Shown: positions 21,784 through 26,825 of the stretch, in pieces
Numbering within the stretch: the first letter of the stretch is position 1
How the letters are laid out: every line of letters begins with the position of its first letter
Virus record (IMG/VR): IMGVR_UViG_3300046786_000293
Span: 96,001-160,000 of that record
From: a virus
Taxonomy: Duplodnaviria > Caudoviricetes
Length of the DNA: 64,000 nt
Reading direction: 5' to 3' (one strand)
The notes under the pieces: model-generated
What the model was told of the DNA's origin: nothing
The model's database searches: none
What the model saw: the letters and a program-made list of their open reading frames with translations, nothing else
Position numbers and translations under genes: made by a program

Positions 21784-21892
21784 CTATATAGAAACACACC
21801 ACCACGGCGTTATACTGCTGTATCGCAAGCAATACTACCATGTCTACCCACTTACATCTTTCGAATGGTGCATGTGATGTGTTTTTATATGG
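21784..21892 (-). ncRNA. Family-2 cassette RNA (AUAUAAAAACAC...GUGUUUCUAUAU closing stem)
   Basis: Terminal inverted repeat; variable interior. Confidence 0.55.
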
Positions 21893-22044
21893 CGCAGGGC
21901 GAGGGATTCGAACCCTAAACAACTATATACTCACAGTGACCTACACGGCGGCGAAGCCCTCAGTTTGATATTGTATAAAGTCACTCATTTTCGCATTCTC
22001 CTCCGGGTCATGACTCCCTTTGGACACACCATGTGAGACCCCGC
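21890..22044 (-). ncRNA. Minimal tmRNA-like RNA (155 nt)
   Basis: Acceptor with G3.U70, T arm, CCA; internal ORF AKMSDFIQYQTEGFAAV*; discriminator is G, not A. Confidence 0.5.
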
Positions 22045-22051
22045 ATAAACT

Positions 22052-22126
22052 TGGTGGACCAGCAGGGACTCGAACCCTGATTAACGACGTGCAAAGCCGC
22101 TGTAATTCCCTCTATACTACAAGCCC
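22052..22126 (-). tRNA. tRNA-Ala(TGC)
   Basis: Cloverleaf; G3.U70. Confidence 0.85.
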
Positions 22127-22133
22127 ATTAATT

Positions 22134-22209
22134 TGGTATCGCGTACGGGAATCGAACCCGTCTAGCCACCTTGAAAGGGTAGTGACCTAACCCAGAAGTC
22201 CAACGCGAT
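22134..22209 (-). tRNA. tRNA-Glu(TTC)
   Basis: Cloverleaf with CCA. Confidence 0.9.
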
Positions 22210-22215
22210 ATAATT

Positions 22216-22290
22216 TGGTACCCGAGAAAGGAATCGAACCTTAGGTCTTTCGATTATCAGTCGAATGCTCTACCATTGAGCTACCCGGGT
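22216..22290 (-). tRNA. tRNA-Ile(GAT)
   Basis: Cloverleaf with CCA. Confidence 0.9.
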
Positions 22291-22296
22291 GCTAAA

Positions 22297-22552
22297 CATA
22301 AGGATGACAACTAGATTCTTCCACCACATACATTGGAAGCATTATCCGCAAATTATGCCGGCTGCGGTTATGATAACTTGGCTGTGTCGCATGTTCTTCC
22401 CTCGGATTAGGAGGGCATAGCTCGACAGTTGCTTATCTTAGGGTACGTGAGTAATAGAGCTACTTGTTTGCTACTAGGATAATTAGTCCCAACTCACTAG
22501 GATTTCGAGGCCCTAGCTTTCACACATCTCACATCCAATTGTCATTCTTATG
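22297..22552 (-). ncRNA. Uncharacterised 256-nt multibranch RNA
   Basis: 14-bp closing stem CAUAAGAAUGACAA/UUGUCAUCCUUAUG with internal hairpins. Confidence 0.55.
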
Positions 22553-22558
22553 GTTATA

Positions 22559-22636
22559 CCATATAGAAACATACTGACGGGAGCTACCCTTAAAGCAGGC
22601 TTCGCTACCCTGCTAATACAATATGTTTTTATATAG
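22559..22636 (-). ncRNA. Family-2 cassette RNA
   Basis: AUAUAAAAACAUA...UAUGUUUCUAUAU. Confidence 0.55.
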
Positions 22637-22639
22637 CAA

Positions 22640-22730
22640 ACTCATTGCGGGCAGGACTCGAAACTGCATGTGGCGTTTATTTCCACTGGCCCCATAACGG
22701 GCCTATGTCTACCATTCCATCACCGCGAGT
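22640..22730 (-). pseudogene. Degenerate type II (Leu-like) tRNA
   Basis: D arm AUGGAAUGGUAGACAU, variable arm and T-like arm; broken acceptor, 6-nt anticodon loop, no CCA. Confidence 0.5.
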
Positions 22731-22781
22731 TCCTGAGGTTAATTACTCCCCAGTATGGGTGCTATCTGCAGATAACACTTA

Positions 22782-22854
22782 CCATATAGAAACACCCTAA
22801 GCAGGCAGGCCCTGCACGTTTCCCTGTGTTTTATTTTAAGGTGTTTTTATATGG
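22782..22854 (-). ncRNA. Family-2 cassette RNA
   Basis: CCAUAUAAAAACACC...GGUGUUUCUAUAUGG; begins at the CCA of tRNA-Lys. Confidence 0.55.
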
Positions 22855-22926
22855 TAGGGGCACAGGGAATCGAACCCTGATTTGCTGGTTAAAAGCCAGC
22901 TACTTTAGCCGCTAAGTTATACCCCC
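22852..22926 (-). tRNA. tRNA-Lys(TTT)
   Basis: Cloverleaf with CCA. Confidence 0.9.
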
Positions 22927-22929
22927 ATA

Positions 22930-23004
22930 TGGTCCCTCCAGACAGATTCGAACTGTCACCTCATCGGGTAAGAGCCGAGTATGCTACCATAACACTTCGA
23001 AGGG
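22930..23004 (-). tRNA. tRNA-Lys(CTT)
   Basis: Cloverleaf with CCA. Confidence 0.85.
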
Positions 23005-23029
23005 ATGGATTGTAAAAATTGTCTTTTAC

Positions 23030-23086
23030 GTGCCATCCCGGACCATACAGGGTACAGGGATGACACTAACGTTTAGCACGTTTCAT
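23030..23086 (-). other. Mini-ORF MKRAKR* fused to a 10-bp hairpin
   Basis: RBS GGAG; ATGA coupling; the G of the UAG stop opens the stem GUGUCAUCCC/GGGAUGGCAC. Confidence 0.4.
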
Positions 23087-23229
23087 GTCAAATTCTCCAT
23101 TTTATAAAATTTTTGATTCTCCCGCTTACGCAGGGCCTTGTGGGGTTTGCGATGCTCGCCCGCACGTCTAAACAAAGCCGCGGCTACAAATTGATTGCGC
23201 TCACGCGGCAACTTTTGCATACGCTTCAT
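23083..23229 (-). CDS. Small, highly basic protein (48 aa)
   Basis: MKRMQKLPRERNQFVAAALFRRAGEHRKPHKALRKRENQKFYKMENLT; RBS AGGAG. Confidence 0.65.
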   Translation of the reverse strand: MKRMQKLPRERNQFVAAALFRRAGEHRKPHKALRKRENQKFYKMENLT

Positions 23230-23286
23230 TGCTTGCTCCTAACTAAAAACATATTATACAATAAATTGGATTTATTGTCAACGAAT

Positions 23287-23378
23287 TGGTACCAGCGGAG
23301 GGGATCGAACCCTCTCAAGAACGCTAATCTGGCGCTAAAAGGCTTATAAGACCTCTCTGACTTCCAAGTCTCGCTGGC
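23287..23378 (-). tRNA. tRNA-Ile(TAT) with a long variable arm
   Basis: 92 nt; loop CU-UAU-AA; variable-arm hairpin; short D arm. Confidence 0.8.
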
Positions 23379-25171: not shown

Positions 25172-25178
25172 ATTATAA

Positions 25179-25239
25179 AACAGGATACATTTTTTCTTTT
25201 ATACCAAAAAAGTTAAAAGTTGCTGTTAGTATCCTAAAA
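25179..25239 (-). ncRNA. Family-1 (Y-RNA-like) element, copy f
   Basis: UAGGAUAC-UAACAGCAA...GUAUCCUGUU. Confidence 0.65.
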
Positions 25240-25241
25240 CT

Positions 25242-25317
25242 TGGTGGACCAGACAGGACTCGAACCCGCCACCCCCACGGTGCAAACGTGGTGCTCTCCC
25301 AGATGAGCTACTGGCCC
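25242..25317 (-). tRNA. tRNA-Ala(TGC), second copy
   Basis: Cloverleaf; G3.U70. Confidence 0.9.
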
Positions 25318-25319
25318 TT

Positions 25320-25472
25320 TTAACTTGGAACTGTATGCGGAATGTATGGAACATTGCGAGGACCACCGTAAAGTTGTTCAAATAGCTTTTTAGCTTCTTT
25401 GACGTCAGATGCGTATATACGCACCTTTCTATCACCTTCAGGAGTCCTAACAGTAGTTTCGTACATTGGCAT
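25320..25472 (-). CDS. Small hypothetical protein (50 aa)
   Basis: MPMYETTVRTPEG...; RBS AAGGA; the track start lies inside a tRNA. Confidence 0.6.
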   Translation of the reverse strand: MPMYETTVRTPEGDRKVRIYASDVKEAKKLFEQLYGGPRNVPYIPHTVPS

Positions 25473-25487
25473 GCCAATTTCCTTAAA

Positions 25488-25564
25488 TGGTCGGAGTGGC
25501 AAGATTCGAACTCGCGACATCTTGGTCCCAAACCAAGCGGTCTACCAGGCTGACCTACACTCCG
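25488..25564 (-). tRNA. tRNA-Pro(TGG), second copy
   Basis: Cloverleaf with CCA. Confidence 0.9.
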
Positions 25565-25569
25565 TATCC

Positions 25570-25644
25570 TGGTGCATCGTGAGAGGGTTGAACTCCCGAC
25601 CTTGGCCTTGTAAGGGCCCTGCTCTACCACTGAGCTAACGATGC
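25570..25644 (-). tRNA. tRNA-Val(TAC)
   Basis: Cloverleaf with CCA. Confidence 0.9.
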
Positions 25645-25649
25645 AAAAT

Positions 25650-25725
25650 TGGTTGCAGAGGAGGGAATCGAACCCCCGACCTCAAGGTTATGAGCCTTGC
25701 CAGATACCGCTTCTAACACTCTGCT
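25650..25725 (-). tRNA. tRNA-Met(CAT), initiator-like (1:72 mismatch)
   Basis: A1.A72 mismatch; anticodon stem has only two of the three G-C pairs typical of fMet. Confidence 0.8.
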
Positions 25726-25810
25726 TCAATTTTAAAAGTATACAACCTTTCACAAACAGAGCCTGTCTTATCAGCAGGGTGCGTTATACACTTATAAAAT
25801 TGTTCAGCTA

Positions 25811-26002
25811 CCTACACCACATAGGCCCTAAACTGAGCGGTTGCTCTGTCCACGTTACCGTCGTTTGGTCCGGCTTACGTCAACCTAGGATATTCTCAAG
25901 TCGCCGATATAAAGCCGGCCTTGAAGTAGATCCTACGCACTCTGCTCTTATGGTTTGGCAATTACCCACTTCTTTAACGTAGAAGTGTAGACGGGGTCTG
26001 TA
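25811..26002 (-). ncRNA. Uncharacterised ~190-nt structured RNA directly 3' of tRNA-Gly
   Basis: UCUACAC/GUGUAGG closing stem and several internal hairpins. Confidence 0.5.
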
Positions 26003-26076
26003 TGGAGCGGCGTGCGAGAATCGAACTCGCGACTTTAGCTTGGAAGGCTAAGGTAATACCATTTTACGAACGCCGC
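26003..26076 (-). tRNA. tRNA-Gly(TCC)
   Basis: Cloverleaf with CCA. Confidence 0.9.
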
Positions 26077-26093
26077 ACAATTTTACTTATGCT

Positions 26094-26177
26094 TGGTGCC
26101 CCAGGGGAGACTCGAACTCCCACGCCTCTCGACACTGGCTTCTAAGACCAGCGTGTCTACCATTCCACCACCAGGGC
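26094..26177 (-). tRNA. tRNA-Leu(TAG)
   Basis: Type II cloverleaf. Confidence 0.9.
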
Positions 26178-26183
26178 AAAATT

Positions 26184-26260
26184 TGGCTCCCCGAGCTGGG
26201 CTCGAACCAGCGACACCTTGATTAACAGTCAAGTGCTTCTACCAACTGAGCTATCAGGGA
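26184..26260 (-). tRNA. tRNA-Asn(GTT), second copy
   Basis: Cloverleaf with CCA. Confidence 0.9.
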
Positions 26261-26314
26261 ATAAATTTTTAACTTGTATCTATTATATAGTCTAATCTAA
26301 TTTGTGTCAACAAC

Positions 26315-26530
26315 TTATTTGATTTTTTTCAAATAGTCTCTACCAATTAGACCAGCTTCAATTTCTTCTAAGGCTGCAACGATCGGTGTGCTAGTTGTAG
26401 TAACCTTAGGTACTGCACCTTTACGCAGTTCACGAACACGTTGAGCTCCCACCAGGATCAAATCAAATCTGTTACCAATATTAGCAACACATTTGTCTGT
26501 GTCATTCATTACACGATTTTCTTTTTTCAT
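26315..26530 (-). CDS. rpoZ: RNA polymerase omega subunit homolog
   Basis: IGNRFDLILVGAQRVREL..G..P......ALEEIEAGLI matches the omega signature. Confidence 0.85.
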   Translation of the reverse strand: MKKENRVMNDTDKCVANIGNRFDLILVGAQRVRELRKGAVPKVTTTSTPIVAALEEIEAGLIGRDYLKKIK

Positions 26531-26581
26531 AACTGCCTTAAAATTGTATTATACTACCTATTGGTGGTTAGTGTCAAGTCT

Positions 26582-26825
26582 AACGCGGAGCCCGTCAGAA
26601 GGACCCGGCAATTTTCATCCAAAGGTATTCTAAAACACACTTGATCCGTACCCTCTATCTGTTAGGACTGCTCTCGGGATTAGTATGTTTTAGAATACCC
26701 TGCGTTGCCGCAGGATATGATAGGGTTGTACCCTACCCAGTAATTTATACTAGTGCGTTCTCGCCACACGTTCATCCTACTGTCCGCCCATTTGATACAT
26801 TTAACGCTGTATTCCGGCTCGCGTT
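26582..26825 (-). ncRNA. Uncharacterised ~245-nt structured RNA, nesting a family-2-like stem at 26624-26699
   Basis: AACGCG-AGCC/GGCU-CCGCGUU closing pairing; GCAA tetraloop hairpin; GGUAUUCUAAAACA/UGUUUUAGAAUACC stem. Confidence 0.5.

Follow-up and report, generated by a model that had tools for sequence, protein, structure and literature searches.

RNA modules with a conserved closing handle and diverse interiors in the tRNA arrays of phages

We report on six stem-closed elements, E1 to E6, in the tRNA array of a phage represented by a single viral contig, the IMG/VR record IMGVR_UViG_3300046786_000293 (338,510 bp, 97% complete). The whole stretch of DNA analysed, 64,000 nucleotides corresponding to bases 96001-160000 of this record, is called the window, and positions below are counted within it. 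The contig is found repeatedly in freshwater metagenomes, and a DNA search of the phage collection gave no close relative. The window carries 39 tRNA genes at 15.5-30.5 kb, all on the minus strand and set among RNA-repair and ribosome-rescue genes (12894-19177, minus strand), which were recognised by Pfam and PHROG scans of the open reading frames (ORFs) of the island. The elements, the adjoining RNAs, the promoters and the neighbouring genes are collected in Table 1.

An earlier note on this DNA described five elements and a variant at 26624, and all six are present at those positions. Imperfect terminal inverted repeats with arms of 17-27 nt are found in each of them; the inverted arm pairs lie at 21786/21874, 22550/22619, 22780/22836, 24709/24829, 24850/24921 and 26624/26682. 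The A.C mismatch said to be common to three elements is pair 8 of E1, E2 and E3; the same pair is U.U in E5 and a Watson-Crick pair in E4 and E6. The interiors are indeed mutually unrelated and fall into separate BLAST clusters, and two elements do begin on an encoded CCA, E3 on that of tRNA-Lys(UUU) and E1 on that of a tRNA-like RNA. The H-type pseudoknot proposed for one interior could not be recovered: a crude search among the bases left unpaired in the minimum free energy (MFE) structure, made with no dedicated pseudoknot program, gave crossing helices of at least 5 bp in none of the six elements.

The exact motif ATATNNAAACRY has 10 copies in the window, 9 of them within 21786-24936 and paired up. 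When one mismatch is allowed, 36 copies are found against 34.6 by chance, so that only the exact, paired form is informative. In the whole genome the left-arm motif occurs six times, five of these in this 3-kb stretch, and the right-arm motif eight times, four of them here. All six elements fold as stem-closed units on the minus strand, which is that of the tRNAs, with z-scores from -4.0 to -6.1. The minus-strand fold is the more stable one for E1, E2, E4, E5 and E6, while in E3 the plus strand has a slight advantage (-30.3 vs -29.1 kcal/mol).

Table 1. Positions in the window of the six elements, of the adjoining RNAs, and of the genes and promoters of the tRNA island
Feature	Position	Strand	Remarks
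E1	21784..21892	minus	about 109 nt; MFE -36.5, z -4.0
E2	22559..22636	minus	78 nt; canonical handle, A.C mismatch; z -4.4
E3	22780..22856	minus	stem opens on the tRNA-Lys(UUU) CCA; canonical handle, A.C mismatch; z -4.6
E4	24709..24847	minus	139 nt; 23-bp closing stem, AUAUGUAAGC / GUUUACAUAU variant; MFE -49, z -6.1
E5	24850..24939	minus	90 nt; U.U at pair 8; z -5.0
E6	26624..26699	minus	variant lower stem GGUAUUCUA / UAGAAUACC, AAACA / UGUUU core as in the others; z -5.5
tRNA-Lys(UUU)	22852..22926	minus	its 3' CCA supplies the opening three pairs of the stem of E3
tRNA-like RNA	21890..22050 (5' boundary approximate)	minus	T arm and encoded CCA (...GGGUUCGAAUCCCUCGCCCUGCGCCA), from sequence; no ARAGORN call
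DUF2828/DUF7788 “Ro60-like” protein	12894-14342		beside the array; titled “RNA-binding protein” in some RefSeq phage records
RF-1/ArfB-like protein	within 12894-19177	minus	Pfam/PHROG scan
T4 Rnl1-type RNA ligase	within 12894-19177	minus	Pfam/PHROG scan
Kinase-like AAA_33 protein	within 12894-19177	minus	Pfam/PHROG scan
Phosphoesterase	within 12894-19177	minus	Pfam/PHROG scan
Dual-specificity (DSP-type) phosphatase	within 12894-19177	minus	Pfam/PHROG scan
HNH endonuclease gene	23621-23893	opposite to the tRNAs	inside the array; Pfam/PHROG scan
sigma70 promoter	26577-26548	minus	perfect, 12/12
sigma70 promoter	26310-26282	minus	perfect, 12/12
sigma70 promoter	25048-25020	minus	TTGACA/17 nt/TATAAT, extended -10, 12/12; heads the E5-E4-tRNA-Glu unit
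sigma70 promoter	23281-23253	minus	12/12; upstream of the unit with two tRNA-Lys genes, E3 and E2

Below, the closing stem of an element is called its handle and the interior its cargo; names in L denote contigs with related loci, and names in G denote genomes used in comparison. The first bases of the 5' arm of E1 are the CCA (21892-21890) of the tRNA-like RNA that precedes it, a tRNA-Pro lies 8 nt past its 3' arm, and its cargo has orthologues in L156 (98%) and L027 (83%), both with a different lower handle. The cargo of E2 consists of two hairpins with invariant loops in which GUAGC is present; when E2 is aligned with four orthologous elements, 7 of 28 pairs show compensatory change, both cargo hairpins included (G-C to A-U). 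The E3 cargo has an orthologue in L096 (97%), and that of E4, behind which tRNA-Glu(UUC) begins after 4 nt, a partial match in L240. E5 follows a 12/12 sigma70 promoter at a distance of about 70 nt; a direct repeat, UAGAUCCCUUUU, borders its cargo on both sides and also occurs in L059 and L075. E6 is found in the leader of a tRNA operon and not behind a tRNA; it has an orthologue in L221 (95%), and its type of handle, CUAUUCUA / (C/U)AGAAUAG, is found again in other contigs. Orthologous cargo is thus present in at least one other contig for each of E1, E2, E3, E4 (partial) and E6. As to the adjoining RNAs, the one directly upstream of E1 (21890-22050, minus strand) has a T-arm-like hairpin and acceptor-like ends; the same two features are seen in a second tRNA-like RNA without an ARAGORN call, at 22637-22780 (minus strand), directly upstream of E2.

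The spread of the family was assessed with two DNA patterns scanned in IMG/VR, the canonical 24-base arm pair and the upper-stem core AAACAYAYU...AGUGUGUUU; all family counts rest on the matches listed by these scans and are lower bounds. Each pattern matches at least about 120 contig stretches, and the chance expectation for the 24-base pattern is estimated to be well below 1. A looser finder gives, among the matches listed, at least 342 module copies, at least 303 of them unique, in about 245 viral contigs; the stem is accordingly kept in related genomes, where the earlier note had proposed to look for it. The canonical matches listed run in the strand sense of the neighbouring tRNAs in 138 cases out of 138. 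The register is also fixed: in 120 of 172 elements, the tRNA called upstream shares exactly one base with the element, namely the A of its CCA. The 3' arm is followed by GG in 153 of the 172, while the next tRNA stands within 1 nt in only 52; considering that the GG mostly occurs without an adjoining tRNA, the CCA:UGG pairs belong to the helix itself.

No true copy is present in bacterial isolate genomes. Of eight pattern matches in bacterial genome contigs, six (five from isolate or gut genomes, one from a Saprospiraceae metagenome-assembled genome, MAG) stand without a tRNA in the vicinity and resemble chance matches in AT-rich sequence; L146 and L148, both MAG contigs, look like mis-binned phage arrays. 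A search of window positions 14000-32000 against Rfam 15 at E <= 1 gave only tRNAs and weak unrelated matches, none of them on E1-E6, and full-text searches of the literature gave no description of the handle. We believe that this family of RNA modules is real, widespread and apparently undescribed, within the known theme of small RNAs processed out of phage tRNA clusters. Separately, a near-identical 69-nt element (UUUCAAAACACAUUUGC...GAAGUGUGUUUUGAAA) with a handle-type core and no tRNA nearby was noticed in several viral contigs, among them L185, L193, L201, L212, L215 and L217; since it coincides in part with stop-free frames of 67-127 codons, it could be coding. A C4 antisense RNA is also found in L215.

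In the RNA sense the consensus handle reads 5'-CCAUAUA[A]AAACACA[U]UA ... UA[G]UGUGUUU[C]UAUAUGG-3' and forms an 18-bp AU-rich helix. In an ungapped alignment of 70 distinct handle variants, standard pairs occupy 92.4% of the cells as against 78.8% in shuffles, and compensatory change is observed at 14 of the 18 pairs; the covariation score is 0.424; shuffles give 0.172, none of 500 attaining the observed value, and slid partners give 0.146 at most. The finder demanded that the six core pairs form and that six out of eight lower pairs do so as well, with no constraint on pairs 15-18; the latter, as well as the compensatory changes, are free of finder bias. At pair 16, the 303 unique elements have U.G in 164 cases, C-G in 80, U-A in 33 and A.C in only 4. 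Read in the tRNA sense, this is a wobble pattern of the RNA type, whereas the opposite strand would have a C.A mismatch there; hence it fits the tRNA-sense strand only. The majority of unique elements have a mismatch at pair 8 (A.C 139, U.U 15 and C.A 12 vs G-C 52 and A-U 52); the recurring feature is therefore an irregularity at a fixed place, where the bases themselves vary. It divides the weak, all-AU lower stem, which contains the CCA, from the stronger upper stem.

The conservation of the parts was compared in 70 unique units, each composed of a tRNA-Lys(UUU) and a module. Mean pairwise identity is 0.91 for the 36-nt handle and 0.74 for the tRNA-Lys; for the cargo it is 0.52, where cargo against shuffled cargo gives 0.51. 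The value for the tRNA indicates that the phages are well diverged, yet the 24-base handle is kept letter for letter. Such conservation of both arms points to a sequence-specific reader. Pfam and PHROG scans of the island ORFs gave no candidate handle-binding protein. In a test for codon mimicry, the handle variant did not track the identity of the upstream tRNA.

The handle also occurs in genes for transfer-messenger RNA (tmRNA). Many core-pattern matches adjoin a “...CCACCA”, and Rfam identifies these as tmRNA genes of the permuted, two-piece type, with matches to RF01850 and to RF04321 (as high as 136 bits). ARAGORN called 12 permuted tmRNAs in the loci, several of them in contigs that also carry canonical modules. 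In 10 of the 12 genes (L171, L178, L190, L199, L210, L222, L030, L235, L091 and L102), the intervening sequence (IVS) is closed by the module handle, stacked on the acceptor stem; it reads CCA-N-AAACACAYU...cargo...AGUGUGUUU-NUGAY-GGG or has the AAGCAC / GUGCUU variant. Like the modules, the IVS is placed behind an encoded CCA and ahead of the 5' G with which the following tRNA-type piece opens. The transcript of a permuted tmRNA gene is cut by the enzymes of tRNA processing to yield a two-piece tmRNA, and the IVS is missing from the mature RNA (PMC11915505). The identity of the two handles, taken together with this processing, is the strongest non-experimental argument that the bounds of the modules are real processing sites.

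The elements of the window are not themselves parts of a tmRNA: no match to the permuted tmRNA family falls on any of E1-E6 (the only one, at E 0.9, is at 21324-21411), and their flanks are tRNAs or other RNAs, so that they stand between tRNAs, behind tRNA-like RNAs or in a leader. We saw no conserved IVS handle and no cargo families in the tmRNA database paper (PMC11915505), and the Rfam consensus of the IVS stretch is weakly conserved and AU-rich. We presume that the IVS of phage tmRNAs originated when a spacer module was caught between two tandem copies or gene halves, which is what the common handle suggests. The two other permuted tmRNAs, in L087 and L103, have a long IVS without the handle, and one of these apparently includes a start codon together with a ribosome-binding site. 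Immediately upstream of the permuted tmRNA gene of L199, at 7820-7857 (plus strand), there is an abiF RNA motif (RF03085, 54 bits).

The 342 cargos, among the matches listed, form 179 clusters, of which 109 are singletons. In 70% of cases the cargo folds better in the tRNA sense than in antisense, and three cargo clusters in addition to that of E2 contain compensatory pairs (5/19, 13/32 and 4/26). The T-loop motif GUUCRA is enriched, being found in 26 of the 179 clusters as against 5.8 +/- 2.5 in shuffles, where a few of the clusters that bear it are finder artefacts spanning a real tRNA; in about ten clusters a T arm immediately precedes the handle's 3' arm, which recalls its place ahead of the acceptor strand in a tRNA. 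Decoys of anticodon loops are not clearly enriched in the cargos (Lys 5 vs 1.4, Gln 0 vs 3.2, Glu 1 vs 3.6).

The cargos are exchanged between sites. The site from tRNA-Lys(UUU) to tRNA-Met contains 18 cargo clusters in 28 instances, and single clusters are found behind Gln, Leu, Thr or Arg tRNAs and before various others. One cargo may also have different handle variants; thus, in L156 and L027 the handle around the E1 cargo is CUAUUCUA / CAGAAUAG. Either a full module or a spacer of 7-8 nt (7 nt for Lys-His) can stand between the members of one tRNA pair, and no target-site duplication is seen when filled and empty Lys-His and Gln-Ser junctions are compared. Recombination within the handle accounts for swaps of cargo across sites, contexts and handle variants. 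A transposon-like mechanism fits poorly with the fixed orientation, the lack of duplication and the unrelated interiors.

The modules are distributed unevenly among the tRNAs. Among the loci listed for the viral contigs, a module stands directly behind 79 of 111 tRNA-Lys(UUU) genes (71%), with 46 different cargos, compared with 23% for tRNA-Gln(UUG), 13% for tRNA-Glu(UUC), at most 9% for other tRNAs and 0 of 41 for tRNA-Lys(CUU). The commonest downstream neighbour is tRNA-Met (46 of 204). The tRNAs for Lys(UUU), Gln(UUG) and Glu(UUC) have a wobble base of the 2-thiouridine type and are attacked by anticodon nucleases. The bias arises in part from the locus-finding method and shared ancestry; given this, and the lack of mimicry of anticodon loops or codons, we treat it as an unexplained lead. 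A bolder proposal is that the handle is a “landing pad”, mostly behind tRNA-Lys(UUU) and less often behind Gln(UUG) or Glu(UUC), through which hundreds of small RNAs are swapped among phages in an RNA-level analogue of the integron; the cargos would then serve counter-defence or regulation as RNAs under diversification, tRNA processing would release them, and the neighbouring Rnl1-type ligase, kinase and phosphatase might seal or repair them. We regard this proposal, taken as a whole, as distinctly unlikely.

Concerning transcription, the four promoters of the tRNA island (TTGACA, 17-18 nt spacing, TATAAT) are all on the minus strand, which places E1-E6 downstream of host-type promoters in the tRNA sense. 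TTGACA boxes are also found in many inter-tRNA spacers of related contigs; together with the promoters, they present the arrays as mosaics of tRNAs, promoters, RNA cassettes and small ORFs. Four metatranscriptome runs were compared in the form of contigs, from which RNA ends, strand and level cannot be read. A zero-difference contig of RNA library X4 spans 22476-22662, over E2, which is weak evidence; another zero-difference contig covers part of E5 and indicates presence in the library only; and a related RNA contig in X19 covers 24720-24836, in E4.

The array includes further units of other types. A 264-nt RNA-like unit with a 24-bp closing stem and no Rfam match lies at 22293-22556 (minus strand), between E2 and tRNA-Ile; it has a depth bin of up to 576 in RNA library X17, a contig of which covers 22356-22490. 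At 25727-25802 (minus strand), directly upstream of tRNA-Met, there is a stem-closed unit with 20-bp arms, 85% complementary, whose arm sequence differs and which was assigned to neither cassette family. The other of these families has the handle UUUUAGGAU...CAGCAA / ...AUCCUGUUUUA; it is also common in related contigs, and in the window it is found at 21538-21612, 23379-23509 and 25172-25241. A YrlA-type permuted tRNA-like head at 23400-23467 (minus strand) lies inside this “CAGCAA” family (RF02553, 33 bits, E 5e-6, below the gathering score). The island contains, in addition, genes for an RNA polymerase omega-like protein and a radical-SAM protein, the latter with no GenBank phage match and with 25 relatives in IMG/VR.

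Among known systems, the nearest in position and processing is the tmRNA IVS, and the nearest in setting is the pair rnaC and rnaD of phage T4 (species 1 and 2, NC_000866). These are also small non-tRNA RNAs, encoded on the strand of the phage tRNAs and in one row with them, 1-6 nt away from the adjacent genes, and rnaC has a T arm beside its 3' end, as about one in ten of the module cargos do. They differ from the modules in the lack of a long AU-rich closing helix and of the AAACAC / GUGUUU handle; besides, T4 has only two such RNAs, with no known cassette diversity. We know of no function established for rnaC or rnaD. The tRNA-pre-miRNA genes (TMERs) of murine gammaherpesvirus 68 (MHV68) are likewise viral tRNA-like genes followed directly by hairpins, which are freed by the tRNA 3'-end enzyme, with tRNA processing as a source of other small RNAs; they belong to a eukaryotic virus, depend on RNA polymerase III, tRNase Z and the microRNA pathway, and have no common handle. 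As to processing stems of the rRNA operon or T7 type, helices of about two turns that RNase III cleaves, the module helix has 18-23 bp with one internal mismatch, and the phage encodes no RNase III.

In architecture, the nearest relatives are the Y RNAs, including YrlA (RF02553): their ends are paired in a long, sequence-conserved stem with a helix irregularity, the remainder is variable and sometimes tRNA-like, and the genes lie near RNA-repair genes. Membership in this class nevertheless fails. E1-E6 have no RF02553 match at E <= 1, the only YrlA match being the one at 23400-23467; the handle sequence differs, and the CCA register is not a feature of Y RNAs.

We believe it probable, though by no means certain, that E1-E6 are excised, hairpin-capped RNA cassettes belonging to a large phage-specific family in tRNA operons, with the handle as a signal for processing and end protection. 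The module would be co-transcribed with the tRNAs from host-type sigma70 promoters and would fold alone into the 18-bp AU-rich helix, with its first three pairs supplied by the CCA of the upstream tRNA and a variable interior. Two cuts by enzymes of tRNA-end maturation may then free it. One would fall on the CCA or directly behind it, with RNase E as the most likely enzyme and the AU-rich, partly mismatched lower stem as its target; the other would be made by RNase P where the following tRNA has its 5' end. The lower stem, all AU and bearing a mismatch, could open for a single-strand nuclease. The product would be an RNA of 60-140 nt with both ends locked in the helix and thereby shielded from exonucleases. 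The handle would be its constant part, read sequence-specifically, and the cargos would be separately conserved small structured RNAs, exchanged between sites and phages by recombination in the handle and possibly acting in trans.

A precedent for such a cut is available in E. coli, where the proline tRNAs proK, proL and proM have a hairpin after the encoded CCA, which RNase E removes in one step by a single endonucleolytic cut in AU-rich sequence immediately after the CCA (PMC5291269). Those hairpins differ from the modules in being Rho-independent terminators with no conserved sequence or cargo, and a role of RNase E here would be an analogy. Neither RNase III (PF14622) nor a CCA-adding enzyme (PF01743) is found in the phage genome, which makes host enzymes the likely actors. 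The suggestion of the earlier note that the shared stem is a processing or binding handle releasing diverse small RNAs is thus favoured by the strand, the CCA register, the promoters, the covariation and the tmRNA IVS handle; as to the release of discrete RNAs, it is what we infer from these.

Several points weigh against this interpretation. The identity and percent-paired values are inflated, since the loci were found by handle patterns and the finder required core pairing. The A.C of pair 8 is a G.U wobble on the other strand and gives no strand information. Taken alone, the cargos are barely more structured than shuffles (mean z -0.6), so that many of them could be filler. The RNA data are contigs without ends, where DNA carry-over is possible. 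Finally, the phage encodes neither RNase III nor a CCA-adding enzyme, which gives no lead to a dedicated enzyme.

An alternative is that the modules are pure punctuation, i.e., self-folding insulators and processing signals that prevent the adjacent tRNAs, or the halves of a tmRNA, from misfolding and that mark cut sites, while the excised piece is degraded and its cargo is neutral filler. The position of a module is that of the discarded tmRNA IVS, the identity of cargos between units equals that of shuffled sequence, and, along with the low folding score of the cargos, most cargo clusters are singletons. This may hold for many singleton cargos; it does not explain the conserved, covarying ones, where orthologous cargos persist in differing contexts and handle variants, their loops unchanged and their pairs altered in a compensatory way. 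It also leaves aside the enrichment of T-loop motifs, and the compact genomes of phages retain 45-105 nt of cargo where a 4-nt loop would suffice. As a general account we consider punctuation rather unlikely.

It can also be proposed that the module is a ribonucleoprotein scaffold, whose handle docks a dedicated RNA-binding protein (cf. the Y RNA stem and Ro60/Rsr) and whose cargos are effectors, the candidate being the DUF2828/DUF7788 protein. The handle is more conserved than the neighbouring tRNA, its conserved irregularity repeats the architecture of Y RNAs, a T arm is stacked on it in some cargos, and the DUF2828 protein shares the island with a YrlA-type RNA. We hold this to be quite improbable: no DUF2828 (Ro60-like) homologue was detected in the complete relatives G001, G002 and G005, which all have modules, in a search where the positive control G000 scored; E1-E6 do not match RF02553; the “CAGCAA” family is a better candidate partner of the DUF2828 protein; and no other conserved partner protein was identified.

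That the elements are selfish mobile DNA, a MITE-like (miniature inverted-repeat transposable element) or homing cassette which would enter between the CCA of a tRNA and the gene behind it and recombine at its inverted repeats, is very improbable indeed: filled and empty sites of one tRNA pair, one cargo in unrelated tRNA contexts, conserved ends with variable middles and the HNH endonuclease gene inside the array would suit it, but the junctions have no target-site duplication, orientation is never reversed in the 138 matches, the U.G of pair 16 would become a C.A mismatch when read on the opposite strand, the interiors lack the kinship that MITE copies have, the modules have no linked transposase or integrase, and among the matches listed there are no true copies outside tRNA/tmRNA arrays, nor any in bacterial isolate genomes. 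From the “MITE-like mobile unit” of the earlier note, there remain the exchangeable cassettes and the filled and empty sites; of the four features that define a MITE, the terminal inverted repeats are found, and target-site duplication, occurrence in either orientation and a homologous interior are absent. The attC sites of integrons resemble the modules, as MITEs do, in their conserved imperfect inverted repeats around variable content and in cassette-like exchange; however, no recombinase is linked to the modules, their wobble pairs are of the RNA type, and the attC core (GTTRRRY) is absent from the module sequence.

To return to the processed cassettes that we favour, phage tRNA arrays are usually read as supplies for codon usage or anti-defence, and the DNA between the tRNAs is ignored; here, much of this “spacer” is a conserved modular RNA system, with at least 179 different interiors and a handle that links tRNA arrays to split tmRNA genes. 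A concrete origin, the inter-tRNA spacer module, can be offered for the IVS of phage two-piece tmRNAs. If the modules are released, the giant phages of fresh water would make a large unexplored set of small RNAs by means of host tRNA processing, and the handle would be a ready natural scaffold for the expression of stable small RNAs in bacteria.

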